Below the pieces are notes generated by a model that did not search any database, was not told where the DNA came from, and saw only the letters and a list, made by a program, of their open reading frames with translations. A stretch of DNA of 64,000 nucleotides. Source: an uncultured Chloroflexia bacterium (GTDB taxonomy: Bacteria > Chloroflexota > Anaerolineae > CG2-30-64-16). The stretch lies in contig CAVZDU010000002.1 of the NCBI GenBank assembly GCA_963774265.1, forward strand, positions 544,001-608,000, written 5' to 3'. This document shows, piece after piece, positions 13,256 through 46,069 of this stretch. A program made the translations under genes and the position numbers. Position 1 is the first letter of the stretch. Every line of letters begins with the position of its first letter.

Positions 13256-13287
13256 CAGAGCCCGCGGACCAAAATCCGTGGGCTCTG
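13256..13287 (-). terminator. Hairpin terminator closing the left arm of the island
   Basis: Minus strand CAGAGCCCACGGA-TTTTGG-TCCGCGGGCTCTG followed by TTTCGTT, about 40 bp after the gcvH stop. Confidence 0.65.
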
Positions 13288-13325
13288 TGCTATATAGAGA
13301 ATTCGCGGGTGGCGGCCTCGGCTGC

Positions 13326-13733
13326 TCAGTGCCCTCCCTGCTGTTCTTCCTCCAACACGAAGGCTTCGTACGCGGTCGCATCCATCAGTCCGGCCAACTC
13401 ATCCGGCCGAGCCGGCCGCAGTTTGGCCAGCCACGCCTGGCCATAGGGGTCCTGGTTGATGAGCTCGGGCCTGGCTCCGAGCGCCTGGTTCACCTCGACC
13501 ACTTCACCGCTGATCGGTGAGTACGCGTCGCCCGACGCCTTTACGGATTCGATCACTGCCATGGAGTCACCCGCAGCAATGGTGGCGCCAACCGCGGGCA
13601 GCTCCACCCACATCACATCAGAGAGCTGCTTCTGGGCATAATCCGACACCCCGACAACCGCCAGTGCGCCGTCAAGCCGCACCCACGCGTGTGTCGGTGA
13701 ATACTTCGCAACCACGTCATACTGATAGCCCAT
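13326..13733 (-). CDS. gcvH: Glycine cleavage H-like lipoyl carrier protein (orphan)
   Basis: YSPTHAWV, VGVSDYAQ, lipoyl-Lys motif IESVKASGD, INQDPYGQAWL; AGGAGG RBS. Confidence 0.88.
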   Translation of the reverse strand: MGYQYDVVAKYSPTHAWVRLDGALAVVGVSDYAQKQLSDVMWVELPAVGATIAAGDSMAVIESVKASGDAYSPISGEVVEVNQALGARPELINQDPYGQAWLAKLRPARPDELAGLMDATAYEAFVLEEEQQGGH

Positions 13734-13776
13734 CTTTCCTCCTATGAGCCTTTAAGTTTCGGCGGGATAGCATCCG

Positions 13777-14664
13777 TCACACCGCGCGGCCTGCAGCTCG
13801 CTGGCCGCGATAGTAATTCAGATAGCCCTTGCCTGCCGGATCGGAGCCTGTCAGAAAATCCAACCCGCGGGTGATCCACGGCAGAAGCGGCGTCCGGGGA
13901 TCGATCATCGCCACGTCCAGCCCCCACGAGACCGCGGCCGCGAAGAAGGCCAGGTCCAGGATGCGCGGCTGGGGCATGAGATGGCCGGCGTTGCTGATCC
14001 CCAACAGCGTCGGCACGCCCAGCTCCTCGTGTAAGGCTTTCAGCGTCTCCAGCGTGACGTGCATGCTGTCGGGCGCCACGCTGGTCGGCAGGCAGACCGC
14101 ATCGATGAGGACATCTTCACGCGGGATGCCGTGCGCCTCGGCCGCCTGCACGATCCGCCGGGCCACCATGAGACGCTCCTGCACAGTCTTCGGAACGCCG
14201 CCCTCGTACACCAGTCCCGTGCCGATAGCTGCGCCGTGCCGCGCGATAATGGGCAGCATCGTGCGCAGATTCTCACACTCGCCCGTCACCGAGTTGCAGA
14301 GCGCCTTATGCGGATACACAGCCAGCGCGCAATCCACCGTCTGAGGATCACGGGAGTCGACCGCGATGCACGCGCCGGTCGATGCGTACACAGCCTCGAC
14401 TAGCCGGGGCAACAACTTGCGTTCGAGAGGCGCGAGGTCAGGCGCCATCAACTGAACATTGAACACGGGTAGACCGAGCGCCACGCCATCATGTGCTAGC
14501 CGCACCAGGCTGTCGAAACGCCCTTCCTCTAGCTCCGCCCGTACCTCAGGGCGCTCGCACTCATAGCCGCACTGGTCGTTCACGCAGAGCGTCGCCGCGT
14601 CCGGACCGAAGGGAATCGCGCCTGCGGCGTTCGAGAGCTTGCCGGCCGAGGGATGGCTGGTCAT
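13777..14664 (-). CDS. Pterin-binding (DHPS-like) methylcorrinoid:tetrahydropterin methyltransferase, AcsE/MetH-like, divergent
   Basis: IAVDS, LCNSVTGE, GIPREDVLIDAVCLP, TLLGISN and GLDVAMIDP motifs. Confidence 0.75.
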   Translation of the reverse strand: MTSHPSAGKLSNAAGAIPFGPDAATLCVNDQCGYECERPEVRAELEEGRFDSLVRLAHDGVALGLPVFNVQLMAPDLAPLERKLLPRLVEAVYASTGACIAVDSRDPQTVDCALAVYPHKALCNSVTGECENLRTMLPIIARHGAAIGTGLVYEGGVPKTVQERLMVARRIVQAAEAHGIPREDVLIDAVCLPTSVAPDSMHVTLETLKALHEELGVPTLLGISNAGHLMPQPRILDLAFFAAAVSWGLDVAMIDPRTPLLPWITRGLDFLTGSDPAGKGYLNYYRGQRAAGRAV

Positions 14665-14676
14665 GCGTTGTCCCGA

Positions 14677-15783
14677 TCAGATGCTGGCGTCTGCCAGGAG
14701 CGCCTGTGATTTGGCATCGAAGATGCGCAGCCCGGCCACGGGGAAGTCCATCCAGATTGGCGCACCGATCTCCATGCGCACCATCGCGCCGACAATCGCC
14801 TTCACATGAAGGTCGCCGCACATCAATGTCAGCAGCGTTTCCTTGCCGAGCACCTCGGAGATGTAGACCGTAGCGGCAATGGCGCCTGGCGTCCCCGCCG
14901 TCACGACCTGCACATCCTCAGGCCGGATGCCCAACACCACCTCAGCTCCCTCTGGCACGCTCGCAAGCTGCCCGCGCAGCACCTCCGGCACTGTGATCTC
15001 GAAGTGGGGCGAAGCGATCTTCCAATCCTGCTTGTCCAGCTTTCCCGGCAAGAAGTTCATTCCCGGATTGCCGATGAATCCACCCACGAAGGTGTTCTTC
15101 GGGTGAAGGTACACGTCCTCGGGATACCCGATTTGCAGAACCCGACCCCCGCTCATGACCACCAATTGATCTGCCAGCGTCATAGCCTCGGCCTGGTCGT
15201 GCGTCACGTACACTGTCGTCACGCCCAGATCACGCTGCAGCCGCTTCAGCTCCGCACGCATACTCACGCGCAACTTGGCGTCGAGGTTCGACAGCGGCTC
15301 ATCCATCAGGAACACTTCAGGCCGGCGGACAATGGCGCGGCCGATGGCGACACGCTGCATCTGACCGCCCGACAGCTGGCGAGGCAGCCGGTCCAGCAGC
15401 TCCCCGATGCCGAGGATCTCGGCAGTCTCATCCACCCGCCGCCGGATCTCCGGGCGCGGAGTGCGCCGCGCCTCGAGCGGAAACGCGATGTTCTTCCGGA
15501 CGGTCATGTGGGGATAGAGCGCGTAGCTCTGGAACACCATCGCGATGTTGCGATCCCAGGCGGGCACATGCGCCACCTCTTTGTCGCCGATGAAGATTTC
15601 ACCCGCGGTCGGCTCTTCCAGCCCTGCGAGCATCCTCAGCAAGGTTGTCTTGCCGCAGCCTGACGATCCAACCAGGACAGTCAGCTTCTTGTCCAGGAAC
15701 TCCAGGGTGATATCCTCTGCAGCCACCGTGTTGCCGAAGTGTTTCGAGATGTTGCGTACAAGGACTTTGGTCATCCAGGACAC
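14677..15783 (-). CDS. Carbohydrate ABC transporter ATP-binding protein (MalK-like)
   Basis: GSSGCGKT, MVFQSYALYPHMTV, LSGGQMQR, FLMDEPLSNLD, YVTHDQ; TOBE domain. Confidence 0.93.
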   Translation of the reverse strand: MSWMTKVLVRNISKHFGNTVAAEDITLEFLDKKLTVLVGSSGCGKTTLLRMLAGLEEPTAGEIFIGDKEVAHVPAWDRNIAMVFQSYALYPHMTVRKNIAFPLEARRTPRPEIRRRVDETAEILGIGELLDRLPRQLSGGQMQRVAIGRAIVRRPEVFLMDEPLSNLDAKLRVSMRAELKRLQRDLGVTTVYVTHDQAEAMTLADQLVVMSGGRVLQIGYPEDVYLHPKNTFVGGFIGNPGMNFLPGKLDKQDWKIASPHFEITVPEVLRGQLASVPEGAEVVLGIRPEDVQVVTAGTPGAIAATVYISEVLGKETLLTLMCGDLHVKAIVGAMVRMEIGAPIWMDFPVAGLRIFDAKSQALLADASI

Positions 15784-15835
15784 CTTTCTGTCGTCACGTC
15801 AAGCCTCAGGCCAGCCAGGTGAACAAGCAATCGAT

Positions 15836-16687
15836 CTAGTACTTCACCGCGCCTGCGGTGAGGCCGCGGATTACCCAACGCTGGAAAATCAGAACGATCA
15901 CGACCACCGGCAACAGGGCCAGCACAACGCCTGCCGAGATCCAGGTCCATTGTTGGCGGAATGCGAACGAGAAGTTCTGGATCGCCACAGGAATGGTCTG
16001 CACATCTTCGATCCCCAAGGTCACGACGGAAGCAAGCATGAACTCACCGTAGGAACCGATGAACGCGAACATGCCGGCCGCGAACATGCCTGGGAGCGAC
16101 AGCGGAATGATGACGCGGAGAAAGATCTGAAACGGCTTATAACCGTCGACTTTGGCGGCGTCCTCCAGTTCCCAAGGCAGCTCAGCGTAATAGCTGGCCA
16201 GCAGCCACGTCGCCAGGGGCACGCAGTAGAACATGTTCGGTATCACCATGGCCGGCAATGACTTGAGCAGGCCAATCGACTTAAGCAGCACAAACGTGGG
16301 AGCGATCGTCACGACAGGTGGAATCATTGCGCCGAGTTGAAGCAGCACCAGCGACTCTACCTTGTAGCGGAAACGCAGCCGGGCGACCGCGTAGGCGGCA
16401 GTGGACGAGACCACGAGGCACAGCGCCGCAGTTGAGAGCGAAACGATGAAGCTGTTGCGCAACGGGATCAGGAAGCCCAGCTCCAGAATAACCTGCCGGT
16501 ACGCGTCCAGGGTCGGCTCTCGCGGCCAGAGACTGATAGGCTTCAGGTACTCAGTCCCCATGGGCTTTAGGGAGGTGCTGAAGACCCAAAAAAGCGGGAT
16601 CATGCAGAACAGGGTGATCACGATCGTGGCCAGAAGCGAAAGCCCACGGTCGATCGTCTTGTTGTGTCGCTGCAGCCAGTCTTTCAT
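15836..16687 (-). CDS. Carbohydrate ABC transporter permease (MalG-like)
   Basis: EAA loop ELEDAAKVDG; six TM helices; C-terminal RGLTAGAVK. Confidence 0.92.
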   Translation of the reverse strand: MKDWLQRHNKTIDRGLSLLATIVITLFCMIPLFWVFSTSLKPMGTEYLKPISLWPREPTLDAYRQVILELGFLIPLRNSFIVSLSTAALCLVVSSTAAYAVARLRFRYKVESLVLLQLGAMIPPVVTIAPTFVLLKSIGLLKSLPAMVIPNMFYCVPLATWLLASYYAELPWELEDAAKVDGYKPFQIFLRVIIPLSLPGMFAAGMFAFIGSYGEFMLASVVTLGIEDVQTIPVAIQNFSFAFRQQWTWISAGVVLALLPVVVIVLIFQRWVIRGLTAGAVKY

Positions 16688-17849
16688 GCGCCTTTAAACC
16701 TCAAGTTCTTGCGGATCCGGCTCACGTAGAAGAAACCGAGGATCAGCACGATCACGAACACCACCATGCCGTAGGCCGAGCCCTGCCCGAACTGAGCGCG
16801 GCTGAAGTAGAATTTGTAGGCGAACGAGCTGAGTGTCTCGGTCGTCACACCGGGACCGCCCTTGGTCAGGCCGTAGATCAGATCGAAGGTGCGAATCGCG
16901 TCCATCGAGCGGAACAGCAGCGCGACGGCGATGGTCGGGGCCAGCAGCGGCAGCGTCAGCCGGCGGAAGCGATAGAAGCCGCGGGCCCCATCCACCTTTG
17001 CCGCATCGTAAATGTCCTGCGGTATGACCGCGAGCCCGCCTATCATCAGGATGGCGATCATAGACGACATCTTCCAGACGTCAGCCAGGATCACGGAGAA
17101 CCTGGCAAGCAGCGGATCGACGAGAAAGAGCGGCACTGACTTGAGAAGGCCCCACTGAACGAGCAGGCTGCCCAGACCCACGTCGGCGTTATAAAACCAC
17201 TTCCAGATTGCCGCTGAAATGATCGGCGGAATGGCCCAGGGGATGATGATCATGGATCGCAAGAAACCGGTCCAGTGTTTCCCCACCCAGAACGTCGCCA
17301 TCGCCATCCCTAGCCCGATCCAAAACTCGAAGAACACGGCCACGACCGTGAAGAGAAACGTCCAGCTCAGCGCGGACAGGAAATTCTTGCTGCGAAACAC
17401 GCTGGCGTAGTTGGCTAATCCAATGAAGGTCTCGGAGGTCCATTTGGTCGTGTGATCCAGTTCGTGAAAGCTATAGATGATAGTCTGCGCAATTTGATAA
17501 TAGTAAAAGAGGATGATGCCGACGACCGCGGGCAGCACGAACAGAAGCGCCAGTTCGGGCTCAGTCAACGTGATTCGGCGGAAGCCTCCCAGCCCGAAGC
17601 CAAGCGCCAGGCTTCCAACGATCGCCACGACGGCAGGCACAATGGCAAGCGCCGGCTGCACCACGAACATCAATGCCGCGACTATATACATCGCGCCCAC
17701 CGCTACGATCGCAGATACCGCCAGATTCGACCGCGGCCGCTCACGAGCACCCTTGCGCGCGCGAGCATGACCATTCCGAGGAAAAGGAGGCCCACGATCA
17801 AGACGTAGAAAAGCAGTATGCGAGCTACCGCCGTGAATGTGTTGCTCAA
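16684..17849 (-). CDS. Carbohydrate ABC transporter permease (MalF-like) with extra N-terminal TM helices; one frameshift near 17725
   Basis: FIGLANY, DIYDAAKVDGA, TKGGPG; probable TTG start at 17849 after GGAAAGG gives a hydrophobic ILLFYVLIVGLLFLGMVML helix. Confidence 0.85.
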
Positions 17850-17875
17850 AGCATCGACCTTTCCGCTGTCTTAGC

Positions 17876-17925
17876 AAAAACGGCTCTGAGGGCGGAAGGC
17901 GCTCTGGCCTTCCGCCCTCGAGCAG
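17876..17925 (-). terminator. Stem-loop after the solute-binding protein gene (attenuating terminator or mRNA stabiliser)
   Basis: GAGGGCGGAAGGC-N6-GCCTTCCGCCCTC perfect 13-bp stem, followed on the minus strand by a T5 run. Confidence 0.6.
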
Positions 17926-17931
17926 AGCTAC

Positions 17932-19353
17932 CTATTTGGCCAAGGCGTCGATCTGTTCGCAGGCATCATCCAGCGCAGTCTGAGCCGGCTTGAGGCCGGT
18001 CAGGGCGGCATGGATTTCCTCGGACAGAATCGATGTGATATCAGCGAACTTGGGAGACGGAATGGGCGGGATTGCCGTGTCCGCCACCTTCTGAATCAGC
18101 GGCATGTTCGGGTTGTTCTTGATGACGTCTGGGTCTGAGTAGACGTCCATGTGCGCCTGCACCGGGCCCTGCGACAGGTTGAATGCCTTCTGGACCGGGA
18201 AGTCGAACATCACCTCGAGCACCTTCGCGGCCGCTTCCGGGTTGTCCGAGAACTTGTTGATGGAGAAGCCCCAGCCCTCGAAGAAACCCGCGCCCTTGCC
18301 TGGCACGGTGGCCGGCATGGGGATGAAGCCCCACTTGTCGACGATCTTCGACTGCTTCGGGTCATTCAGCCAGAACATCATGTCCTGGCGTCCGGTGTGG
18401 AAGACCGCCTCGCCGCTGACGAAGCGCACCTGCGACTCCTCTTCCTTCCAGGTCAGGGCCTCTTTGGGGGTGATGCCCTTGTCAAACAGGCTCTTCATGA
18501 AGGTGAGCGCGGCCAGGCCCTTCTCGTCGTTCATCGCGCACTTGCCGTCTGCATCGAAGTACGTACCGCCGTAGCCGTTCAGGAACTCGACCCAGCGGTT
18601 GACGAGGACCTGATCCTTCAGCGCGGGCCAGGTCCAGCCGCTCATGCCCGGGTTTGCCTTCATGAGCGTCTTCGCGGCAGCGACCAGTTCGTCGTAGGTC
18701 TCGGGAGGCTTGATGCCGGCCGCTTCGAGCAGGTCTTTGCGATAGTACAGCCCGCCGATGCCGCCCCACCAGGGCCCCAGGGCCAGCAGCTTCCCATCGG
18801 CCGTGAAGGCTTCCAGGTAAGACGGGTTGAGCTTCGCAAGGATGTCTGGGTTGATCAGGTCGTTGAGCGGCATGAGCCAGCCGGCCTGCAGCGAACTCCG
18901 GCAGCCAGTAGAGGCCCATGCCGATCAGGTCGGTCGTGCCGTCCTCAGCCTGGAACCAGGCGAGGTAGTTGTCGCGCCAGGGACCCGCCTCGTACGGCAT
19001 GATGTTGAGCTGAACGTCGATGTTGGGGTACTTCTTGGCGACTTCTTCCCGGATGGCATCAATCGGGGGGCTGGCCGGCCCAAAGGTCTTCTCGAAGTAG
19101 CCGTTGTACGCGATCGTCACGATTTCCTTCTCCACAGGGACCTCGACGGTGACAACCTTCTCGACCTCCTTCACGACCTCTTTGGGAACCTCGACCGTCT
19201 GAATAACGGTCTTCTCGACTTGCTTCTGAACTCGACCACCTGGGTCACGACCTTCTCCACCACCTGGGGAGTCGGTGCGGCGCAAGAGGTCAGCAAGGGC
19301 AGGACGATCATCATCGCGACCAGGACTAGCCGGAAAGTGCTCTTCTTTGACAT
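17932..19353 (-). CDS. Extracellular solute-binding lipoprotein, family 1 (sugar type), frameshifted
   Basis: Lipobox LLTSC; V/E/K-rich linker; LYYRKDLLEAAG..PETYDEL; GWGFSINKFS; indels near 19230 and 18890. Confidence 0.88.
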
Positions 19354-19487: not shown

Positions 19488-20462
19488 TCATTCCCAGAAA
19501 TTGTGCGGCCAGGCATGCGCCTCCAGCGCAGCCAGGTCGCTGTCGGGCAGCGGCCCCCGGTCGGAGGCGGCTACGTTCTCGCGCGCATGATGTGGTTTGC
19601 GCATGCCAGTAACCACCGTCGTGACGGCCGGGTGGCTCAGGCAGAACCGCAGTGCGGCCTGGGCGAGCGTGTCGCCCTCCTCGCGGAGCAGGAATTTGAG
19701 CCGCTCTGCCCGCTCCGCCACCTCGCGCCGGCGATCGCCGGAGAAGTAGAAATCCAGGAAGCTTCCCTCGGGGAACGTCGTTTCGGGCGTGATCTTGCCG
19801 GTCAACGCGCCTTCGTCGAGCGGGGATTTGACGATGATGCCGACTTGTCTCTTCAAGCGCCAGCGGGAACAGCCCCTGCTCCGGTGCTTGCTCCCAGATG
19901 TTGTACGTGACCTCACAGGCGTCGATCAAGCCGGTGGCGATGGCCTCGTGCGCCATAGTCGGGCTCCAGCGGATAGTTCAGCGACAGGCCGAACGCGGCC
20001 ACTTTCCCTTGCTGCTTCAGTTGCAGAAAGGCCTCTTTCCATTCATCCTGGCCGGCCCATTCGTCCAGCCAGACGTGCAGCAGCTGCAGGTCCAGGCACT
20101 CGACGCCGAGCCGCTTGAGGCTCTTCTCGGTGGACTCGATGATCCAGGATTTCGGAAACACCTCGGCAAGCGGTGTGCCAGGCGCGGCCGGCCACTTGAA
20201 GTTCATCGGATTGACCTTGGTGGAAACGTAGATGCGCCCAGGCCAGCGAGCCACGGCCTGCCCCACGAGCTCTTCGCTCAGGCCATCGCCATAGTTGGGC
20301 GCAGTGTCAACGAAATTGACGCCCAGACTCGAAGGCCGCCCGCATGGACGCCAGCGACTCCTCATTATCGGCCCCGGCCCACCAGGCCCCACCGATGCCC
20401 CAGGCTCCGAACCCAATCTCAGAAACCTGAAAGCCCGTCTTGCCAAGCTGTCGATAACGCAT
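19488..20462 (-). CDS. Aldo/keto reductase, frameshifted
   Basis: MRYRQLGKTGFQVSEIGFGAWGIGG; GVNFVDTAPNYGDG; STEKSLKRLG..DLQLLH; LAQAALRFCLSHPAV. Confidence 0.88.
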
Positions 20463-20514
20463 AGGTTATGCTCCTTATTGCAGTGAAGGATTGTCTGGAA
20501 CGATGCCAGTCTGA

Positions 20515-21964: not shown

Positions 21965-21978
21965 GCCCATCCTTCCTG

Positions 21979-22626: not shown

Positions 22627-22666
22627 GCTTTTCCCCTGCGCTCATCACGGATCCGCGTTAAGCTCG

Positions 22667-23542: not shown

Positions 23543-23561
23543 CAGAATCTCCTTGCGTGAT

Positions 23562-24580: not shown

Positions 24581-24589
24581 AGCAACTCC

Positions 24590-33003: not shown

Positions 33004-33051
33004 TTGACATGCAGTGGTTTGTGTGCTATACATGCGTTATGTTGTTATAAT
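33004..33051 (+). promoter_or_regulatory. sigma70-type promoter of the right arm plus candidate GntR operator
   Basis: TTGACA(33004-09)-N17-TATACA(33027-32) with extended TG, followed by GTTGTTATAAT (33041-51). Confidence 0.7.
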
Positions 33052-33104
33052 AAGTGATCGATCGGGTATCTCTCCTATCCTCCCGGCCTATGAGGTGCCA
33101 ACCT

Positions 33105-33975: not shown

Positions 33976-34003
33976 TCCGTCCATCCAAAGGGAGTCTATT
34001 CGC

Positions 34004-34503: not shown

Positions 34504-34506
34504 GGC

Positions 34507-36844: not shown

Positions 36845-36882
36845 CCTTTTGCATTTATCGAGGAATTCGAAAGGAGCACAAC

Positions 36883-37571
36883 ATGGATAAGCAGCAACTG
36901 CTGGCGCAATCTGTCACGAGAGCCTTCTGGAAACTGATCCGGAGGCAGCCGCGTTGGCAGCCCAGGCAGCCGTCGATGGTGGCGTCGATGCCATGGAGGC
37001 CATTCAGGTCGCCTCCGCGGCGATCGCCAGAGGTTGGTGACCTGTTCGAGAGCGGCGACCTCTACCTGCCCAGCCTGATGCTCGCGGGCGAGGCGATGAA
37101 GCGAAGCATGAGCATCCTGTCACGCTACCTCAGCGTGGAGCAGGCCAGCCAGAAAAAGGGCAAGGTCGTGATCGGTGCAGTGTCCGGCGACATCCACGAC
37201 ATCGGCAAGAACCTGGTGGCGACCATGCTTTCAGTGCACGGCTACGAGGTCGTCGACGTGGGTGTCAATGTCCCACCGATGGAGATCATCGACACCGCGC
37301 AGCGAGAACATGCGCGCTTCATTGCGCTATCTTCGCTGATGACGACCTCGATGCCCTACCAACGCGACGTGCTGGAACTCCTGACGCGAGATGGGCGTTC
37401 GAGACCGCTTCTACGTCGATCGTCGGCGGCGGCCCGGTCACAGCCGAATACGCCAGCCGGATCGGCGCCGACGGCTGGGGGGTGAGCGCGGTGTCCGCGG
37501 TGAAAGTGTGCGACCGCCTGTTGCAGTCCAACGAACGTCCTCCCGTCAAGTCCACCTTCCTTCAGGAATAG
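36883..37571 (+). CDS. Corrinoid methyl carrier protein, MtmC-like, frameshifted
   Basis: AAGGAG RBS; LYLPSLMLAGEAM, GDIHDIGKNLV, LSSLMTTS, IVGGGPV, IGADGWG. Confidence 0.9.
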
Positions 37572-37581
37572 GAGCATAACC

Positions 37582-38970
37582 ATGACACTCAATCGTGATC
37601 GGCTGATGGACGTGCTTGACAAGGCGCACAAAGGGCCCATCGTCAAGCAGTTCGACTGGGACACGCGCACGATTCCCGGCGCGATTGCCGACAAACTCAA
37701 GAAGTACGGCCTGCAGAAGACCTGCGATCCGGCCAATCCGATCAACCAGAACCTGGAGCTGGCGGATCGCTTCTTCGCGGCCGCCCTGGAAGTGGCGACC
37801 GAAGTCGGCATGCTGTGCACCGATACGCAGCGCGCGATCCGCTACTCGCGGGAGGAGCTGATCGCGGGCCTCGAGGCCGCGCCGGCCGCCTTCACGCTCG
37901 GTGAAGGCAAGGAAATCGCCCATTTCCAGCACCGCAGCATCTCCGATCCGGTGGCGCCCATCTGGGTGTCGCCCCTGAGCATTGCCGTGAGCGAGGATGT
38001 CTTCGAACCGCTGGTGATCGGCATCGCCAACGTGCCGGAAGTCGACTGCCTGGAGGGACCCTCCTTCGAGACCATTTGGGGCGCCCCCCTGCGCGCCGGC
38101 TCGCCTTACGAATTGCTGGCAGGCAAGATGCAGGCCCAACGCTTCTACAGCGCCATCTCCAAGGCGGGCCGCGATGGCATCGGCCTGTATGCGGTCGGCA
38201 CCTCGCCGACGCATTACGGCGTGCTGGGCGGGTACGGCGTGCCTGGCGGCTACAAGCCCGAACGCGACATCGTGCTGGTGCTCTCGCCCGTGGAGATCAA
38301 GACATCTTACGAGAACCTGATGAAGCTCGCGCATGCCTACAACTGCGGCGGCCAGACCTACGGCGGCTCGTGGTCGATGATCGGCGGCTACGCGGGTGGG
38401 CCTGAGGGTGCGGCGCTATCCTGCATCGCCTGCACCATCATGTTGTACAATGTCTACCAATGCGTCAACGGCGCCAGCTTCCCGTACGATCTGAAGACCA
38501 TGGGCAACTGCGGCCGCAATGCGTTGTGGGCCCTGGGCGTGGTGTTCCAGGCCCTGAGCCGGAACACGCACATCTGCGCCAATTCCGTGCTCAACCAGAC
38601 CGCCGGCCCGGTGACCGAGTGCCTGCTCTACGAGTCTGCGGTCGGCATGATGACCCTCAGCGTCTGCGGCACGTCCTCCTGCACCGGCCCCCGGACGGCG
38701 GGCGGCAAGTACACCGATTACATCACCCCGCTCGAGGTGAAGTTCGCGGGCGAGGTCTTCAAGAAGTCCGCAGGGATGGGCCTCTCCGAGGCGAACGAGA
38801 TCGCCAACCGCCTGCTCCCGAAGTACGAGCACGAGCTGGGCCACCCGCCCAAGGGGCAGAGCTTCCAACAGTGTTACGACCTGAAGACGCTGCAGCCCTC
38901 GGATGAATGGCGCAAGGTCTATGATACGGTCAAGAACGATGTCATCGCGGCGGGCATGCCGCTGAGCTGA
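37582..38970 (+). CDS. Monomethylamine:corrinoid methyltransferase (MtmB) family protein, non-pyrrolysine
   Basis: Intact 462 aa ORF; LCTDTQRAIRYS, SEDVF, SPYELLA, AGRDGIGL, GGYAGGPEG, AGPVTECLLYE, PPKGQSFQQCYDLKTL follow the remembered Methanosarcina MtmB sequence end to end. Confidence 0.88.
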   Translation: MTLNRDRLMDVLDKAHKGPIVKQFDWDTRTIPGAIADKLKKYGLQKTCDPANPINQNLELADRFFAAALEVATEVGMLCTDTQRAIRYSREELIAGLEAAPAAFTLGEGKEIAHFQHRSISDPVAPIWVSPLSIAVSEDVFEPLVIGIANVPEVDCLEGPSFETIWGAPLRAGSPYELLAGKMQAQRFYSAISKAGRDGIGLYAVGTSPTHYGVLGGYGVPGGYKPERDIVLVLSPVEIKTSYENLMKLAHAYNCGGQTYGGSWSMIGGYAGGPEGAALSCIACTIMLYNVYQCVNGASFPYDLKTMGNCGRNALWALGVVFQALSRNTHICANSVLNQTAGPVTECLLYESAVGMMTLSVCGTSSCTGPRTAGGKYTDYITPLEVKFAGEVFKKSAGMGLSEANEIANRLLPKYEHELGHPPKGQSFQQCYDLKTLQPSDEWRKVYDTVKNDVIAAGMPLS

Positions 38971-39059
38971 AACGGAAGGGCCGTGTTTAACCGGATGACC
39001 ATACACTGCGCCCAGTATGACCTGGCCGCCGGGTATGGTCGTTTCATTGGAGATAGACA

Positions 39060-40194
39060 ATGGCAAGCCTGAGCACGCGACTTTTCGATGTGTCGATGAC
39101 GTCCCCGTTCATCCTGGCATCAGGACCGCTATCCTATGATGCGACCGGGTTATGGAAGGCCTACCGCGCAGGTGCAGGTGGCGTCGTCACCAAGACCTTG
39201 CGCCTCTCGGCCGCGGTCAACCCCACGCCCCACATGGTCGTCCCGCGCACTTCCAACCTGCGCGCCACGCTGTTCAACTCGGAGAAGTGGGCCGACCTGA
39301 CCTGGCAGCAGTGGGTTGAGATCGAGCTGCCCCGGATGGCGGACCACCCGGGCCTGCTGATTGCCAGCATCGGTCACACGCCCCCCGAAGGTGTGATTGC
39401 GGGGCCGGTGGCCGGAACCGGGGTGGTTGACGCCATCGAGTGCGTCGCGTACACCAGGGAAACTATTGTGGACCTGATCCGCGCCGTACGCGCGCGCACG
39501 AAACTGCCGATCCTCGCCAAGCTCACGTTCAACTGGGGGGATGAATTGTACCCGGCGGCGGAAGCCGCGCTGAGAGCGGGCGCAGACGGCTTCACAGCCA
39601 TCGATTCGATCGGGCCAACGCTGCAGATCGATGTGGAGACCGGCCAACCGACGGTCGGAGGCGCCGGCAGCCAGGCCTGGATGTCCGGAGCCGCTATACG
39701 GCCCGTCGCCCAGGCAGTTGTTGCCGAGCTGGCTCGCCGGCATCCCGGCGTCCCCATCGTGGGAACAGGTGGCGTCATCCAGGCCGAAGATGCCATCGAA
39801 ATGACCATGTGCGGCGCAGCAGCCATGGGCGTGTGCACCGCGCCGTTGCTGCGCGGCCTGGAGTGGTTTGCCCGCACGCATGAAAAACTCAATCTCTGGC
39901 TGGATGAGCGGGGCTACTCGTCGCTGGATGCCGTGCGCGGCAAGGCGCTGGCCAACTTGCAGGCGGAAGAGGACACGACGCGGCTCGTGTTTGGGTTCGA
40001 GCCGCTGAAATGCACCAAGTGCGACCTGTGCGTTGTGCTGTGTCCGTATGACGCGCGGCGAGATGGAAGGCGAGAAGCCCAGAAGTCCTGAGCTCAAACA
40101 GATCCTTCATGAAGCGCGTTGTCGCGATTGCGGCCTGTGCGTAGAGGTGTGTAAGCCTGGCGCGCTCACCTACGCGAACTGGCCGCGGCCCTAA
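39060..40194 (+). CDS. Dihydroorotate/dihydropyrimidine dehydrogenase (PreA)-like FMN protein with C-terminal 2x[4Fe-4S], frameshifted
   Basis: PFILASGP, GGVVTKT, LPILAKLT, MSGAAIRP, IVGTGGV; CTKCDLCVVLCP and CRDCGLCVEVCK. Confidence 0.8.
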
Positions 40195-40207
40195 GGGGAT
40201 ACGACGC

Positions 40208-42095
40208 ATGGCCAAGACTGCAAACGTAGATCTGACGACGGGCCGCGTCACGGTGACGGAGACCGCGCCCGGGCTGCTGCGAGATTACCTGGGGGGGCGG
40301 GGATTAGGAGCGCGGCTGCTCTATGACCTCGTCGGCCCGGAGGTCGATCCGCTGGGCCCGGACAACATGCTGATCTTCACCGCAGGCCTGCTGGCCGGCT
40401 CCCCGTGGCCCACCTCGGCCCGGATGCATGTCACCTTCAAGTCGCCGCTCACCGGCACATATGGCTACGCGAATACGGGCGGACAGATCGTGGCACAGCT
40501 GCGACATGCCGGGTACGACGCACTGCTGGTGACGGGCCGCGCGGCGGAGCCGTCCATCCTGCGCGTGACGGACGATGACATCGCGATCGTGCCTGCGCCC
40601 GAGCTGTGGGGCCTCCAGACCGGCGCAGTGCACGACGCGCTGCTGGGTCCCCGGGGCGACAAAAGCAAGGGCTGCGTCGCGTGCATCGGCCCTGCGGGCG
40701 AGAACCTGGTGCGCATTGCCGCGATCATCAACGATCGGGGCCGCGCGGCGGCACGCGGCGGCCCGGGCGCGGTGATGGGCAGCAAGAATCTGAAGGCGCT
40801 CCATATCGTGGCCCAGCGGCGTCCACCCACGCCGCCCGAATTCCGAGACGCCGCCCGGACCGCGATGGACAAGGTGCGCGCAGACCCACATCTTGACGGC
40901 CTGCGGCGCTGGGGCACGCTGGTGCTGATGGACGGCAAGAATGTGCGCGGCGATCAGCCGGCCAAGAACCATCAGTTCGCCCAGGTGCCCTTCATCAAAT
41001 CGGTGAACGCGGCCGCATTCGACAAATACGTCGAAGCGCATCGCGGCTGCTACGGGTGTCCGATCAAGTGCAGCCGCGATTCCGAGGTCGACGAGGGCGC
41101 GTATGCCGTGGAGGTGGAGGGTCCGGAGTACGAGAGCACCAACGCCCTGGGCCCGATGAATTGGGTCAGCGACCCGGAAGCGATCCTGTATGCCAACCGC
41201 CTGTGCAACGAGTACGGCCTGGACACCATCTCAACCGGCGTGACGATCGCATTTGCCCTCGAGCTGCACGAGAAGGGATTGCTGGACGACGAGCCGGATC
41301 TGCCGCTGGCATGGGGCAGCCCGGCAACGCTGCACGGCCTGATCGAGCGCATCGCCTTGCGTCGCGGGATCGGCGACGTGCTGGCCGAGGGCACCCGCCG
41401 CGCAGCGGAGCGCATCGGCCGCGGCGCCGAACGTTACGCCATGCAGGTCAAGGGGCTCGAGCTGCCCCGCCAGGAGCCGCGCTTCGCCAAGGGCTTTGGC
41501 CTGGGCCATGCCACGTCCAATCGGGGCGCAGATCACCTCTACGGCCTGCCGGCCATCGACCTGGCGGGCGCCTGGGACGTGGCCAACCGCGTCTTCCCGG
41601 CCGAGATCGTGCCGGAGCTGATGGACCCGACGAACGAGAAATACAAGCCCGACATGGTGGTTTTCGGGGAGCACTTCTGCGCGGTGACCGATTCATTGGG
41701 CATCTGCAAGTTCAGCACCATCGAGGAATACGCCCTGTTTCCCGAGGACCTGGCCCCCGGCGTTGCTGCGTTATGGGGCCGGCCCGTCACCGGCGCGGAT
41801 CTGCTGCCCGTGGGCGAGCGCATCGTGAACCTGGAGCGGCTGTACAACGTGCGCCTGGGGCTGTCTCGCAAGGACGACCGCTTGCCGGCGCGCTTCACCG
41901 ACCGAGCCCGCGCCGCTCTACGAATACGAAGAGGATCCCCAGACCGGTGAGATGGTCCGCTCCGCCGAGCCGATCCGGTACGGGCTGCTGGTTGACTTCG
42001 AAGGCATGCTGGATCGCTACTACGATCTGCGCGGATGGACGCGCGACGGCCTGCCGACCGCTGAAACGCTGGCACGCGTTGGGCTCACACCCTGA
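40208..42095 (+). CDS. Aldehyde:ferredoxin oxidoreductase (tungsten AOR family); frameshift near 41905
   Basis: YLGGRGLG, KSPLTG, IGPAGENLV, RAAARGGPGAVMGSKNLKA, CYGCPIKC, GPEYE, GLDTISTG, SNRGADH, DSLGICKF, YYDLRGW. Confidence 0.92.
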
Positions 42096-42146
42096 ACCGT
42101 CACACCGGTCAGTGAGAACACATTCGCAACAGGAGTCTACTGAGGC

Positions 42147-43142
42147 ATGAACACGAAGCTTTTCCAGAAGGATTTCATCACCACCCCCGACTGGACCGTG
42201 GAGGACCTGAACACCATGCTCGACCTGGCGTTCCGGCTCAAGGGCGACTTCGCCACCGGCGTGCTGCACGATCACATCCTGCGCGCCAAGACGCTGTACA
42301 TGCTCTTCTTCGAGGAGTCGACCCGCACGCGCAACTCGTTCGAGACGGGCATGACGCAGCTCGGCGGCCACGCGATCTGGCTGACGCCCAAGGCGACCCA
42401 GATCGGCCACGGCGAAAACGCCAAGGACACCGGCATGGTGCTGAGCAGCTACGGCACACGGCATCGCCATCCGCGACTGCCGCACCGGGATCGGCAACAA
42501 GTACCTCTACGAGATGGCGCAGTACGCCGATGCGCCGATCATCAACATGCAGGACGACGTCGATCACCCCTGCCAGGCCATGGCCGACCTGATGACCCTG
42601 ATGGAGCTGTTCGGCCGCGACCTGCGCGGGCGCAAGTTCGTCATCTCCTGGACCTACGCGCCGAAGTACGTGCGCCCGTTGAGCGTGCCGCAGTCGCTGG
42701 TCTGGCTGATGCCGCGCTTCGGCATGGACGTGACGCTGGCCTATCCCGAAGGGCTATCACATGATGCCGCGACGTGATGGAGAAGGCCCGCCAGTTCGCG
42801 GACGAGGCCGGCACGAAGCTCACCGAGACCAACGATATGGACGAGGCATTCAGGGACGCCGACTTCCTCTATCCCAAGTCCTGGGGACCGATCATGGTCA
42901 CCGAGGACGAGGCCGAGGTGGAGGCGATGGCGGCGCAGAACACCGGCTGGCGCGTGACGCAGGAGAAGATGGCGCTGGCCAAGAAGCATGCGGTCTACAT
43001 GCACTGCATGCCCATCGACCGCGGCCACGAGGCCGACGGCGACGTGATCGACGGCCCGCAGTCGGTCATCTACAAGCAGGCCGAGAACCGGCTGCACATC
43101 CAGAAGGCGCTGATGGCGCTGATGATGAGCGGCCGCGCGTGA
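42147..43142 (+). CDS. YgeW-like (knotted) carbamoyltransferase, frameshifted
   Basis: STRTRNSF, QIGHGENAKDT, DHPCQAMAD, SWTYAPKYVRPLSVPQ..RFGMDVTLAYPEG, YPKSWG, MHCMP. Confidence 0.82.
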
Positions 43143-43171
43143 GAGGATCCTGGCCGGGATTTGAGAGGCCC

Positions 43172-44390
43172 ATGCAACCCGAACTCACAGATCACATCGC
43201 CGCGCTGGCCCGGCAGATGACCGGACCCCGCGAGCGCTTCCTGGCCGACCTGATCCGCATCCGCTCGTACACCGGCCAGGAAGGTCCCGCGGTCGAGCGC
43301 ACCCTGGAGGAGCTGCGGGCCATCGGCTGCGACGAGGTATGGATGGACTCGGCGGGCAATGCCCTGGGCCGGATCGGGCGGGGACCGCGGGTGATCCTCT
43401 ACGATGCGCACCTGGACACCAATGAGGTGGCCGATGCCCGCGAGTGGCCGCACCCACCCCTGGAGCCGGTCGTCGAAGGCGATGTGATGTGGGGCCTGGG
43501 CGCCTCGGACTGCAAAGGAGGGGTCGCGGCGATCGTCTACGGCGCCGCGATCCTGGCCACGCTGGGGCGAGACCTGCCCGCGGTGCGCGCCCTGCTGCAG
43601 GAGGTCTCCGTCGTGGTGATGGGCGCGACCCTGGAGGAGGACGCGGAGGGCTTCGCGCTGCGGTCGCTGGTCGAGCGCGATGGGCTGCGGCCCGAGGTCG
43701 TGCTGCTGGCCGAGGCCACCGATCTGACGCTGCGCCGCGGGCAGCGAGGGCGCTGCGAGGTTCGCGTGCGAACGGCAGGCCGCGCGGCCCACGCCAGCCA
43801 GCCCCACCTGGGCGAGAGCGCGATTCTGAAGATGCTCCCGGTGGTCTCGGCGCTGGAGGCCGATGAATGCCGCCTTGCCGGTCGATCCCATCTTCGGCCG
43901 CGGGAGCCAGGTCGTCTCGATGATCGAGGGCCCGCACACCCCTAATTCCGTGCCCTCCTGGTGCGAAGTGGTCGTCGACCGCCGGCTGACGCCCGGCGAG
44001 ACCGCAGAGACGGTCCTGGCGGGCGTGGCCGCGGCAGTCGAGCCCCTGGGGGCAACCGCCCGCATCCCGGAACAACCGGTGTCGACGCACACGGGCCTGC
44101 GGCTGGATGGCCCGGCGTTCTATCCCGGCTGGCTGCTCGCAGAAGATCATCCGCTGCTGGCTGCGGGCCAGGCGACCTGCCGGACGTTGTGGGGGCAGGC
44201 GCCGCGCGTCGACGTCTGGCGCTTTTCCACCGATGGTGCGTATTCCGCCGGGGCAGCCGGCATTCCCACCCTCGGATTCGGACCGGAGGAGGAGCAGTAC
44301 GTACACGCGGCCAACGACCAGGTAAACCTGACAAAGCTGGCCAAAGCCGCGCAGTTTTACGCGCTCTTCCCCCTGATCTTCCAGCGATGA
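43172..44390 (+). CDS. YgeY-like M20 metallopeptidase/amidohydrolase; frameshift near 43860
   Basis: LYDAHLDT, WGLGASDCKGG, TLEEDAEG, RRGQRGR, AAHASQP, WRFSTDG, LGFGPEEEQYVHAAND. Confidence 0.85.
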
Positions 44391-44442
44391 TCTACGACCC
44401 ATGCTCGAGTGCGGGAGTGCTGATCCATAGGACGGTGTTGCC

Positions 44443-45780
44443 ATGATACTCCTCCCTGAGTACCTGATCGACGTGCCAGGCGAGCCGCCGAAGCACCGCT
44501 GGGGCGTGCGAGTGATGGGCGCCCAGGTGGCCGCGGTCGCATCTCATGCGGACCTGCGCCAGCTTTACCCTGAAGACGAGGTGGTGGACGCAGGGGGCCT
44601 GACACTCTCCCCCGGCTTTGTCGATGCGCATACGCACCTATACGGCGTGCTGGCCCACGGCATCCCCCTGCATAAAGCGCCGTCCGGGTTCTGGCCGTTC
44701 CTGGAGGATTTCTGGTGGCCGCTGGTGGAAGATCGGCTCGACCACGAGATGATCTGCGCTGCCACCGACCGCAACCTGGCGACGATGTTGCGCGGGGGCG
44801 TCACCAGTTTCTACGACGTCACCGAGGCGCCGAACGCCCTGCCCGGCTGCCTGGCGACCCAGGCCAACGTCGTGCGCGCCCGCGGCATCCGCGGCATCCT
44901 CTCCTTCGAGGCGACCGAACGGGTCAGCCGGGATAACGGCCAGCTTGGGCTACACGAAAACCTGGACTTCATCCGCACATGCCAGGAAGAGGCCCGGTCA
45001 GAGCAGAACGGGACACCGGCGGGCCTCCTTTCAGGCTTCATGTGCTACCACACGACCTTCACCTGCTCGACCGGGTTTATCCGCCAGGCGTTTGACCTGG
45101 CCGCGGCGCACGGCGCCACGGTCCATATGCATGTCTCCGAGGGTGCGTATGAGCCCGAACATGCCCTCACCCATTTCGGAATGCGCACGTTCGAGTTCTA
45201 CGACCGCCTCGGCGTCGCGGGGCCGGCCATGCAGGCTTCGCAATGCGTCCAGATCTCCCCTGCCGAGATTGAGATCATCGCGCGGCGCGGGGTGCGAGTG
45301 TCCCACATGCCGTTATCGAATTGCGAGGTGGGCGGCGGCGTCGCGCCCGTGCCGGACCTGCTTGCTGCGGGCGTGCCCGTGGGCCTGGGCTCCGATGGCT
45401 ACATCACCGACATGTTCGAGGTCATGCGCGGCGCGTTCCTGATCCACAAGGCTTATCGCCAGGACCCGCGCGTGATGCCGGCCAACGTCGTGTGGCGCCT
45501 GGCGACCGAGGGCGGCGCGCAAGTGCTCGGGCTGGACCGGGTGGGCCGGCTCCTTCCGGGCTGGCAGGCCGACCTGCAGCTGATCGACTCGGCCCTGCCC
45601 ACACCCGTGGAGCCCTGGAACCTCTACGGCCAGCTCCTGCTGTATCGGAGCCGCCGCGATGTACACGATGTGATGGTGGCCGGCCAGTGGCGCGTGCGCA
45701 ACGGCGCCGTGCTGGGGGTGGACGAGGAGGCGCTGGACGCGAGGGTGCACGAGTCCGCGCGGCGGATCTGGCAGGTCTGA
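44443..45780 (+). CDS. SsnA-like amidohydrolase (purine/aminohydrolase family)
   Basis: PGFVDAHTHLY, HMHVSEG, SHMPLSNCEVGGG, GLGSDG, GRLLPGWQADL. Confidence 0.85.
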   Translation: MILLPEYLIDVPGEPPKHRWGVRVMGAQVAAVASHADLRQLYPEDEVVDAGGLTLSPGFVDAHTHLYGVLAHGIPLHKAPSGFWPFLEDFWWPLVEDRLDHEMICAATDRNLATMLRGGVTSFYDVTEAPNALPGCLATQANVVRARGIRGILSFEATERVSRDNGQLGLHENLDFIRTCQEEARSEQNGTPAGLLSGFMCYHTTFTCSTGFIRQAFDLAAAHGATVHMHVSEGAYEPEHALTHFGMRTFEFYDRLGVAGPAMQASQCVQISPAEIEIIARRGVRVSHMPLSNCEVGGGVAPVPDLLAAGVPVGLGSDGYITDMFEVMRGAFLIHKAYRQDPRVMPANVVWRLATEGGAQVLGLDRVGRLLPGWQADLQLIDSALPTPVEPWNLYGQLLLYRSRRDVHDVMVAGQWRVRNGAVLGVDEEALDARVHESARRIWQV

Positions 45781-45849
45781 GACGACGGAGGCCTGGCCGC
45801 GGCACGAGTGCCCGTAAGGGTCTCAACACACTCGTCAGGCGCGCTATTG

Positions 45850-45885
45850 GAGCCCACGGATCGAGATCCGTGGGCTTCTGTTCTT
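45850..45885 (+). terminator. Hairpin terminator closing the right arm of the island
   Basis: AGCCCACGGATC-GA-GATCCGTGGGCT followed by TCTGTTCTT, about 70 bp after the last stop. Confidence 0.6.
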
Positions 45886-46069
45886 CCCAGGGTCGGAGAT
45901 CGCAGATGCTCACACATTCCACAGGCAATAGCAGACCCCTGGCCCCACCCTGAATCATCGCCAGTTCTGAACCGCCATCGGCCTCCGCTTACTGACGTGC
46001 TGCAGCGCCACATTGTCTCGGTGCGCGGGATCGGCTATCGGTCTGATGGGTGAAGCTTTGTAAAGAAGT

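Follow-up and report, generated by a model that had tools for sequence, protein, structure and literature searches.

The window analysed here, a stretch of 64,000 nucleotides, derives from an uncultured, soil-type member of the Anaerolineae (genome G000; 5.5 Mb in 10 contigs, 84% complete), and it carries an island of genes arranged in two divergent arms between 13.3 and 45.9 kb. The island's genes for corrinoid-dependent demethylases, an ABC importer, a sugar kinase and an aldolase, a deaminase-type amidohydrolase and a lone homologue of the formyltransferase Ftr belong to a conserved Anaerolineae unit, which we call the upper cluster. The island's second part, on the right arm, represents a variant form of a module known from the literature, that of reductive uric-acid (2,8-dioxopurine) degradation. 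We propose, with moderate confidence, that the island serves to break down an N-methylated purine glycoside, perhaps a methylated nucleoside from RNA or DNA turnover, and that the methyl groups are passed to folate. The purine part of this reading is based on the relatives of the deaminase, on the purine-type neighbours of MtmB at 44 of 57 distant loci, and on the presence of an SsnA orthologue in all seven genomes that carry the cluster, and the glycoside part on a binding protein whose nearest relatives bind disaccharides and glycosides. The components are of known kinds; what we did not find in print is their union, a tyrosine-type branch of the MtmB family, the lone Ftr homologue and a link between MtmB and purine genes that crosses phyla. 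Literature searches returned no description of the gene cluster and nothing relevant on MtmB in Anaerolineae, on corrinoid methylxanthine demethylation, on MttB or MtmB in connection with nucleosides in Chloroflexota, or on MtmB together with xanthine dehydrogenase.

Domains were assigned by Pfam scans over stop-to-stop frames on the expected strands, and equivalog-level assignments were made by scoring NCBIfam profiles against their cut-offs, with broken genes scored piecewise or via intact orthologues. A preliminary description of the same DNA had listed the contents of both arms, and Pfam recovered every domain it named in the same order. The class was sampled as one set of 401 genomes (G numbers). 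Related loci (L numbers) came from a search with MtmB as the query, which gave 20 loci, and from an alignment-based search that added more, 77 loci being kept from the best 80 of 137 hits.

Orthologues of the island's MtmB (at least 68% identity; next best 46%) are present in seven of the 401 genomes, and homologues in 44. For Ftr, orthologues (at least 55% identity; next best 37%) are likewise present in seven genomes and homologues in 28. The two sets of seven genomes are identical. Five of these genomes have both genes on a single contig with less than 15 kb between them, and the remaining two assemblies are fragmented. Neither orthologue occurs in the same-genus genome G363 or in 13 genomes of the same family, which indicates a patchy distribution. 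The preliminary description had proposed a single pathway for the whole island, and would have given it up if the two arms never occurred together elsewhere; the arms do co-occur in other genomes. That the demethylase, importer, kinase and aldolase, deaminase and Ftr genes form one conserved unit is borne out both by the matching MtmB and Ftr distributions and by synteny that persists, in several arrangements, over 22 genomes.

At loci L009, L010 and L012-L015 the upper cluster is a single co-directional operon. Its first half encodes a binding protein, two permeases, an ATPase, (a pterin methyltransferase), a corrinoid protein, MtmB, (a corrinoid protein) and MttB; its second half continues with an FGGY kinase, an aldolase, a GlcD-like oxidase, a Fer4/CCG protein, a TRZ/ATZ amidohydrolase, a Zn-dependent dehydrogenase (ZnDH2) and Ftr. 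At L021 and L022, genes for an aldo/keto reductase (AKR) and an aldehyde:ferredoxin oxidoreductase (AOR) come after the operon, and these AOR copies are more distant. The gene order of the window is kept in G404 and G405, and in G401 corrinoid protein 2 and MtmB stand directly before a run of Ftr, corrinoid protein 1, MttB, AKR, importer, GntR, FGGY and so on, with an Xdh trio beyond. In a variant represented by L006, L007, L023 and L024, MttB and the orthologous importer are missing; genes encoded there include three of URO-D (MtaA-like) type, two for GH4 glycosidases, two for PfkB kinases and one each for a SIS and an Amidohydro_2 protein.

Gene presence was counted in the 22 genomes within the locus DNA covered (four loci are shorter than 13 kb, and the DNA of L009 and L013 stops where Ftr begins). 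A corrinoid protein adjoins MtmB in all 22. The FGGY kinase is present in 18, the aldolase and the deaminase each in 17, ZnDH2 in 16, and the GlcD-like and Fer4/CCG proteins each in 15; MttB, the CUT1 importer and the GntR regulator are each found in 13, Ftr in 12, AKR in 10, and the pterin methyltransferase and Xdh each in seven. All seven of the Xdh-bearing genomes have an MtmB of at least 80% identity. The remaining genes are less common: AOR (at least 50% identity) and the first Zn-dependent dehydrogenase (ZnDH1) in six each, SsnA and the carbamoyltransferase in four each, PreA and GcvH in three each, and YgeY in two. GcvH and ZnDH1, the latter lying beside GntR, had been counted as pathway members in the preliminary description; with three and six of 22 genomes, we regard them as non-core.

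The right arm reads on the plus strand and follows a published scheme. In the accounts of the reductive urate route drawn on here (parts of PMC12507026 and of bioRxiv 10.1101/2025.04.24.650524), XdhD is followed by YgfK or UacX (PF01180), SsnA, HyuA, YgeY, YgeW (with the carbamate kinase YqeA) and then YgeX. The same parts of PMC12507026 name UacX (PF01180) as the reductase of the Clostridioides difficile urate cluster and describe SsnA as common in Chloroflexota. The island has both an Xdh trio (33054-36824) and a PF01180 reductase (39057-40088) near its SsnA-like gene, as expected of a urate cluster. The xanthine-dehydrogenase-family molybdenum hydroxylase (33054-36830) is encoded by frameshifted genes for FAD, 2Fe-2S and Mo subunits, fragments of which match XdhA/B/C-like NCBIfam profiles. 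The PreA/UacX-type DHO_dh flavin reductase (39060-40190) has one frame change before its Fe-S tail and scores 157.6 bits against a PreA cut-off of 335, and its L005 orthologue carries 4Fe-4S domains. It is followed by a tungsten-type AOR (40208-42150; Pfam AFOR_N and AFOR_C, 40145-42092) with a frame change near its C-terminus. An OTC/PTC-like carbamoyltransferase (42147-43142; Pfam OTCace_N and OTCace, 42144-43139), spread over three frames, had been labelled YgeW; this label did not hold, given that the gene is nearer to ornithine, putrescine and N-acetylornithine carbamoyltransferases and that its C-terminal piece reaches 66 bits against a YgeW cut-off of 500, a score that is a lower bound because the gene is in pieces. 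The YgeY-family M20 hydrolase (43190-44390; Pfam M20, 42734-44387) has one frame change, and its two pieces score 202.6 and 132 bits against a YgeY cut-off of 321, which their sum would exceed. The arm ends with an intact SsnA-like amidohydrolase (44443-45780; Pfam Amidohydro_1, 44431-45777) that scores 236-238 bits, below the two SsnA cut-offs of 455 (TIGR03314) and 444 (NF005540).

The island has no genes for HyuA, YgeX or carbamate kinase, homologues of which map to G000:C1:425-428 kb and C1:361.9 kb, and the relative at L003 has a hydantoinase in its cluster. A fuller urate-type locus is found elsewhere in the source genome (G000:C1:419857-437853), with an Xdh Mo subunit 64% identical to that of the island, a YgeY-like protein, a carbamoyltransferase, a carbamate kinase, pyridoxal-phosphate (PLP) enzymes, a PreT/YgfK-like gene and an SsnA-like gene at 30% identity, which makes the island copy a paralogue.

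SsnA orthologues (at least 53% identity) occur in 48 of the 401 genomes (one of which, G389, is unpublished), namely in seven of the seven cluster genomes versus 41 of the 394 others. Three genomes of the same family that have neither MtmB nor Ftr (G085, G260 and G237) carry a stand-alone block of Xdh, YgeY, carbamoyltransferase, SsnA and PreA at 63-82% identity, and the corrinoid protein, MtmB and AOR of the window consequently sit inside a resident module. The urate-type module re-associates with the cluster in other lineages: G402 has the order MtmB-SsnA-carbamoyltransferase-AOR-AOR-PreA, and G190 the order ZnDH2-Ftr-AKR-AOR-AOR-SsnA-PreA-M20. The earlier proposal that the unit is tied to heterocycle-degrading genes thus gains from the SsnA orthologue in all seven cluster genomes, from SsnA, PreA and AOR beside the cluster in separate lineages, and from a shared sequence element described next. 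Its assignment of the ring-opening genes stood only in part, in that they are of purine/urate type yet constitute a variant of the published reductive uric-acid pathway that also stands alone in same-family genomes and has a much wider distribution than the cluster (48 of 401 genomes).

The two arms diverge from a 195-base gap (32859-33053). A promoter scan and an alignment with L001 and L003 delineate in it a divergent control region (32906-33051, no strand assigned), which contains the motif (A/T)GTTGTTATAAT twice, in inverted orientation, along with mirrored TTGACA promoter-like elements, all conserved in both relatives. At two mismatches or fewer the motif has three matches in the window, compared with 0.17 expected. 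The exact 12-mer TGTTGTTATAAT was found at nine of 99 loci, eight of which are from orthologue genomes (L001, L003, L004, where it occurs twice, L006, L007, L023, L024 and L030), with L077 as the only outside match. In G401 it lies upstream of the genes for corrinoid protein 2 and MtmB, upstream of GntR, and approximately 1.4 kb upstream of the transporter ATPase matches that precede the Xdh trio; five further orthologue genomes also carry it (those of the window, G404, G405 and the genomes of L006 and L007). Its location before the MtmB, the GntR-sugar and the Bmp-Xdh operons fits the action of one regulator on all modules, and the 12-mer is a putative operator common to them. The island itself encodes a GntR/HutC-type regulator with a UTRA effector domain (32106-32837, minus strand; Pfam GntR and UTRA, 32109-32858).

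These observations bear on the alternative that the island merely juxtaposes independent pathways (for a sugar or polyol, for quaternary-amine demethylation and for a urate-type compound) that have no common substrate. We judge this unlikely. Such independence would account for the SsnA/Xdh module standing alone in same-family genomes and occurring in 41 of 394 genomes without the cluster, for the shuffling of modules among lineages, and for a second, Bmp-type importer in close relatives. It does not sit well with MtmB and Ftr orthologues in the same seven of 401 genomes, with MtmB embedded in the sugar operon at L009-L015, with the same 12-mer before three kinds of operon, or with a sugar module that stays with MtmB even where MttB and the importer have been replaced.

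MtmB itself (37582-38970, plus strand; frame 37504-38967) is intact and matches Pfam PF05369 at 258.1 bits against a cut-off of 25, covering profile positions 4-448 of 450. It aligns in full length with Methanosarcina barkeri MtmB (1L2Q, E 1.6e-54, residues 9-453). Opposite the pyrrolysine (Pyl) of 1L2Q it has Tyr203, and its open frame contains no in-frame UAG, so that the pyrrolysine expected of a monomethylamine methyltransferase is missing. Tyrosine occupies this position in 19 of 19 orthologue rows of an alignment versus none of 70 other rows, where threonine is commonest (36 rows); of 97 high-scoring segment pairs, seven short ones and two with stops elsewhere were left out. In a quick IQ-TREE maximum-likelihood tree the orthologues form one clade with a long stem (SH-aLRT 100). 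The adjacent corrinoid protein 2 (36808-37568, plus strand; Pfam B12-binding, 36808-37482) has one frame change.

More distant MtmB homologues, with 37-53% identity, are represented by 57 loci from Bacillota, Spirochaetota, Hadarchaeota, Ca. Hecatella, Myxococcota and other Chloroflexota. A purine-type neighbour is present at 44 of these, and at 38 of the 44 loci that extend over at least 10 kb; around random positions in the single genome G000, any purine-type gene lies within 10 kb in 9.2% of cases and an Xdh gene in 3.8%. The neighbours comprise Xdh-family proteins (27 loci), TRZ/SsnA/hydantoinase amidohydrolases (32), Bmp/PnrA binding proteins (20), PreA/PreT (7), carbamoyl-group enzymes (5) and PucR (4), and a corrinoid protein is present at 47. 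Neither sugar genes nor MttB were found at any of the 57. At L017 (238-12733), from the archaeon Ca. Hecatella orcuttiae, two tandem MtmB homologues of 50-51% identity are accompanied by PLP enzymes, PreT, PreA, a carbamate kinase, a dihydropyrimidinase-type amidohydrolase and a carbamoyltransferase. G000 contains a further MtmB locus (C10:44916-59699), where two tandem paralogues (30-33% identical) lie together with genes for two corrinoid proteins, a Bmp-type binding protein, an amidohydrolase, an Xdh-family protein and a RACo activator.

These neighbourhoods predict methylated purines, rather than simple amines, as substrates for a large part of the non-Pyl MtmB family. We tentatively suggest that the cross-phylum clade comprises corrinoid-dependent methylpurine N-demethylases, the tyrosine branch of which has been built into an Anaerolineae operon for a methylpurine glycoside or nucleoside; neither this enzyme activity nor such a catabolic pathway is known to have been reported, and we hold this broader proposal to be less likely than not. 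In one concrete version, a cationic N-methylpurine nucleoside such as 7-methylguanosine would be imported, and the amidohydrolase would open its imidazole ring. The Ftr homologue could then save the ring carbon as formyl-folate while MtmB and MttB pass methyl groups to folate, the sugar would leave by a ketose-phosphate aldolase route, and the leftover ring would enter the reductive urate module.

MttB (20478-21978, minus strand) is a pyrrolysine-free member of its superfamily with two frame changes, and its two pieces score 120 and 108 bits (Pfam PF06253). The profile match and the lack of a pyrrolysine codon place it in the non-Pyl branch. An intact orthologue (L015:11604-13007) is one open frame, and its nearest structure is that of the glycine betaine methyltransferase MtgB (9YCE/2QNE, E 3e-48). 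A sub-threshold match to PYLIS_3, the mttB pyrrolysine insertion element, lies inside this Pyl-free gene (20928-21019, minus strand; 25.4 bits against a gathering score of 38, E 0.2). Upstream of MttB is corrinoid protein 1 (21979-22626, minus strand; Pfam B12-binding and B12-binding_2, frame 21982-22641), which is MtgC/MtbC-like and scores 189 bits against an MtgC-like cut-off of 310. The methylcorrinoid:pterin methyltransferase (13777-14664, minus strand; Pfam Pterin_bind, frame 13780-14676) scores 139.7 bits with the NCBIfam methyl-tetrahydrofolate:corrinoid methyltransferase domain, whose cut-off is 259. Substrate methyltransferases, corrinoid proteins and a methylcorrinoid:pterin methyltransferase are therefore encoded together, as in known demethylation systems. 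RACo-type activators (PF14574) are matched five times in G000, at four sites that all lie outside the island.

The methyltransferases also invite a different substrate, namely a non-purine methylated amine glycoconjugate (such as a choline-type or N-methyl-aminosugar glycoside or an Amadori compound), in which case the deaminase and the urate-type genes would serve something else. We consider this doubtful, although it retains an appreciable share of the probability. The portion of PMC13044021 drawn on here describes MtqB of Methanococcoides methylutens Q3c, which uses tetramethylammonium and choline, as the only characterised non-Pyl MtmB, and the rest as 'of unknown function'. The first function shown for a non-Pyl MtmB is accordingly methyl transfer from cationic amines, with a conserved Met and Cys described near the ligand, and the legend of Figure 6 there refers to a tree of 1,061 Pyl and non-Pyl MtmBs, of which about a thousand are non-Pyl homologues. 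The glycine betaine enzyme nearest to MttB, the disaccharide binders nearest to the binding protein, and the PfkB, SIS and GH4 proteins of the L006/L007 variant, which are typical of glycoside and aminosugar routes, point in the same direction. Against an amine glycoconjugate, the core cog0402 deaminase (17 of 22 genomes) belongs to a group that acts on amidine-type amines, and the wider MtmB clade has its purine-type neighbours at 44 of 57 loci. The 77 loci kept from the best 80 of 137 hits include none from Methanococcoides or Methanosarcina, which suggests that the window MtmB may not be close to MtqB, and Pfam scans of the island revealed no glycerophosphodiesterase or choline kinase.

The other genes of the left arm, all on the minus strand, suggest what accompanies the methyl groups. 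The CUT1-type importer (14677-19231; Pfam SBP_bac_1, two BPD_transp_1 and a MalK-type ATPase, 14680-18924) consists of a MalK/UgpC-like ATPase (14677-15783), two permeases (15836-17877) and a binding protein (17932 to approximately 19231) with one frameshift. For the binding protein, the closest match of an intact orthologue is 1EU8, which binds trehalose/maltose (E 7e-48), with MalE3 and the sulfoquinovosyl-glycerol binder SmoF next. In close relatives, a Bmp/PnrA-type ABC importer (L003, 11404-15167; L030, approximately 4400-7200) occupies the place where the window has the PreA-like gene and AOR, and it lies directly after MtmB or before the Xdh trio.

The AKR (19491-20462; Pfam frames 19491-20758) is in four pieces with three frame changes. 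ZnDH2 (23562-24589; Pfam ADH_N and ADH_zinc_N, 23565-24589), of the Tdh/polyol-dehydrogenase type, is below all NCBIfam equivalog cut-offs. The TRZ/ATZ-type (cog0402) amidohydrolase (24590-25973; Pfam Amidohydro_1, 24593-25973) is nearest among NCBIfam profiles to chlorohydrolase, 5'-deoxyadenosine deaminase and 8-oxoguanine deaminase, none of which is matched over its cut-off, and its nearest structures are 3LNP, 4DZH, the MTA/SAH deaminase 4F0R and 8-oxoguanine deaminase. Judging from these relatives, it is probably a deaminase of a purine- or pterin-like amine. A GlcF-like Fer4/CCG iron-sulfur protein (26053-27156; Pfam Fer4_8 and CCG, 26056-27156) and a GlcD-like FAD oxidase (27146-28535; Pfam FAD_binding_4, 27933-28535), each spread over several frames, match GlcD, TfrB and LdhH-like profiles, each under its cut-off. 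The DhnA-type class I aldolase (28564-29448; Pfam DeoC/LacD family, 28247-29329) has an intact orthologue that falls just short of the cut-off for the ADH-synthase/DhnA subfamily (236.7 against 241 bits) and scores 139.6 bits with LsrF. The xylulokinase-like FGGY kinase (29483-31045, in several pieces; Pfam FGGY_N and FGGY_C in three pieces within 29483-31419) has one that scores 339.9 bits against a XylB cut-off of 380. ZnDH1 (31187-32044; Pfam 31190-32044) is confined to closer relatives. At the far end of the arm is a GcvH paralogue, a lipoyl carrier (13326-13733; Pfam GCV_H 137 bits, frame 13329-13751; NCBIfam GcvH 153 bits against a cut-off of 117), and a second copy is found at G000:C2:266388.

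The lone Ftr/FhcD homologue (22667-23587, minus strand; Pfam FTR and FTR_C, 22670-23587) has the formyltransferase fold and two frame changes. An intact orthologue aligns end to end with Methanopyrus kandleri Ftr (1FTR, E 1.5e-40), and scores 184.4 and 162.9 bits against NCBIfam cut-offs of 297 and 292.6. A single-protein search with Ftr gave five loci, from close relatives only. The homologue is the sole copy in G000, and no Mch was found in this 84% complete genome; with a single copy and no Mch, we rejected its membership of a tetrahydromethanopterin (H4MPT) pathway. Ftr homologues of 31-37% identity in four other Anaerolineae genomes sit in canonical Fhc-type clusters with FhcA- and FhcB-type genes and, in some, also FhcC-, Mtd- and ATP-grasp-type genes. 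At one of these clusters (L094/L095; G202:C54:38800-66000), from which MtmB is absent, FhcA-, FhcB-, FhcC- and FhcD-type genes, Mtd and ATP-grasp adjoin genes for a GlcD/CCG pair, a TRZ-type amidohydrolase, SsnA (54%) and PreA, as well as two AOR genes.

The presence of an Ftr homologue and a pterin methyltransferase could also signal a substrate of pterin or flavin type that bears a polyol side chain or is a glycoside. Examples would be pteridines with N-methyl or dimethylamino groups, glycosides of pterins, or ribityl compounds. We regard this reading as quite improbable. The polyol-type route of Zn-dependent dehydrogenases, AKR, kinase and aldolase would suit such a compound. Cog0402 includes pterin and isoxanthopterin deaminases, and Xdh-family enzymes hydroxylate pteridines. 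Furthermore, FolB and a fusion of HPPK with GTP cyclohydrolase I (GCH1) lie directly left of the island (11534-13177, minus strand). We considered these two genes as island members and rejected them, since they adjoin none of the 20 loci found with the MtmB query. The lower module moreover matches the urate pathway and no known pterin route, and the genes at the distant MtmB loci include some for PucR regulators and for Bmp nucleoside-type binding proteins. Beyond FolB and the fusion, the left flank holds transaldolase, radical-SAM and glycosyltransferase genes and the right flank pstSCAB-phoU, all unrelated to the island.

Given these considerations, we return to degradation of an N-methylated purine glycoside by a composite catabolic regulon, with the conserved Anaerolineae cluster as its upper part and the urate-type module as its lower part. 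The CUT1 system would import a glycoside-type compound, from which MtmB(Tyr) and MttB, each with its own corrinoid protein, would strip N-methyl groups that the pterin methyltransferase hands to tetrahydrofolate. The TRZ/ATZ-type deaminase may remove a freed amino group from the purine-like ring. A Zn-dependent dehydrogenase and AKR would convert the sugar or polyol part into a ketose, to be phosphorylated by the FGGY kinase and split by the DhnA-type aldolase, and AOR followed by the GlcD/CCG enzyme could oxidise the aldehyde product. For the Ftr homologue, the probable role is formyl transfer to a pterin, with an N-formyl intermediate as the donor. Finally, the Xdh enzyme, the UacX-type reductase, the SsnA-like protein, YgeY and the carbamoyltransferase are predicted to open the demethylated ring.

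Several observations weigh against this scheme. No upper-cluster enzyme reaches an NCBIfam equivalog cut-off, and no nucleoside phosphorylase or hydrolase was seen in any cluster in the Pfam scans. The CUT1 importer, present in 13 of 22 genomes, is of the sugar type and not of the Bmp/PnrA type found at distant MtmB loci, and three relatives, at L001 (G404), L003 and L004 (G401), have an additional Bmp-type importer, which could mean two substrates and not one. MttB and an orthologous importer are missing from L006 and L007, where MtmB, the deaminase, AKR, GntR and the genes between FGGY and Ftr, inclusive, are retained. The frequency of the SsnA module without the cluster and its stand-alone occurrence in the same family could make the adjacency secondary, and the co-occurrence counts overstate support in that the cluster genomes are related and not independent trials. 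A clue to the ligand from RNA elements was also lacking: no riboswitch was found in the island at E values up to 1, where only the PYLIS_3 match and a spurious lncRNA match appeared, and none at gathering score in seven orthologous loci. Lastly, the genes of the window are themselves broken.

This last point could indicate that the island is decaying in G000 through real frameshifts that leave pseudogenes, which we consider very improbable. Measured against intact orthologues, the 32.6-kb island contains at least 17 frameshift junction zones (17754-40061), and the MtmB and SsnA-like genes are intact, most others being spread over two to five frames. A homopolymer of at least four bases occurs in two of the 17 zones versus 27% of random island segments, so that homopolymer sequencing errors, which we considered as the cause, are unsupported, a point in favour of decay. 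However, decay of the island would not explain why the flanks are broken likewise, with B12-binding radical-SAM genes (5935-8137) in pieces. Nor was a concentration of frameshifts in the island supported, since its long open reading frame coverage, a crude measure in a GC-rich genome, ranks at the 10th percentile among 655 genome windows, with similar values in the flanks. Other metagenome-assembled genomes of the MFD series (L001, L003, L013 and L018) are fragmented at other sites, MtmB being in five pieces in L018 and whole here, and open orthologues are found in L004, L005, L009, L010, L012 and L015. The breaks in the window genes are probably assembly errors.

All cells produce methylated bases and nucleosides, which are not salvageable, and to our knowledge their degradation without oxygen is largely undescribed. 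If the proposed function is correct, the route would link nucleic-acid turnover, B12 demand and one-carbon (C1) cycling in soils, sediments and guts, with methyl groups feeding folate C1 metabolism and rings feeding the newly described reductive urate pathway. The lone Ftr homologue, if read correctly, would be a new use of its fold in a genome in which Mch was not detected at 84% completeness.

Among known systems, the sugar genes most resemble the Escherichia coli route for L-fucose and D-arabinose, in which FucK (FGGY) and the FucA aldolase are followed by an aldehyde dehydrogenase and then by the glycolate oxidase GlcDEF. The island likewise encodes together an FGGY kinase, an aldolase, an aldehyde-oxidising enzyme and a GlcD/GlcF-type 2-hydroxyacid oxidoreductase. 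It differs in that its aldolase is of class I (DhnA-type) and not class II, its kinase is nearest to xylulokinase, its aldehyde-oxidising enzyme is a tungsten-type AOR, and dehydrogenases and a reductase take the place of an isomerase.

With the reductive uric-acid cluster, the right arm shares an Xdh-family enzyme with an FAD subunit, a PF01180 reductase, SsnA-like and YgeY-family proteins and a PF00185 carbamoyltransferase. In contrast, it is without HyuA, YgeX and carbamate kinase, its SsnA-like protein and carbamoyltransferase are under their cut-offs, and a corrinoid protein, MtmB and AOR are inserted in the module. The Ftr homologue shares with Ftr/FhcD (1FTR; Fhc complex 6S6Y) the full-length fold alignment and both Pfam Ftr domains, yet it is under the cut-offs, belongs to a genome in which no Mch was found, and follows a deaminase and a Zn-dependent dehydrogenase.

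The closest precedents for the methyl-transfer genes are MtmBC/MtbA, MttBC, MtgBCA, MthBCA and MtqBC, which like the island combine an MtmB- or MttB-family methyltransferase, a B12-binding protein and a pterin-binding methyltransferase. The part of PMC12155760 considered here describes MthB, an MttB member from Eubacterium limosum that acts with the kinase MthK on a kinase-activated substrate, phosphocholine, and MthK thereby provides a precedent for a kinase ahead of a demethylase. Both MtmB and MttB of the island are pyrrolysine-free. The island differs from the known three-component systems in the tyrosine that replaces pyrrolysine in the MtmB orthologues, in that its activators, of the RACo type, are encoded elsewhere in G000, and in that its two methyltransferases sit in an operon for carbohydrate uptake and cleavage, together with a deaminase, Ftr and purine-ring genes.

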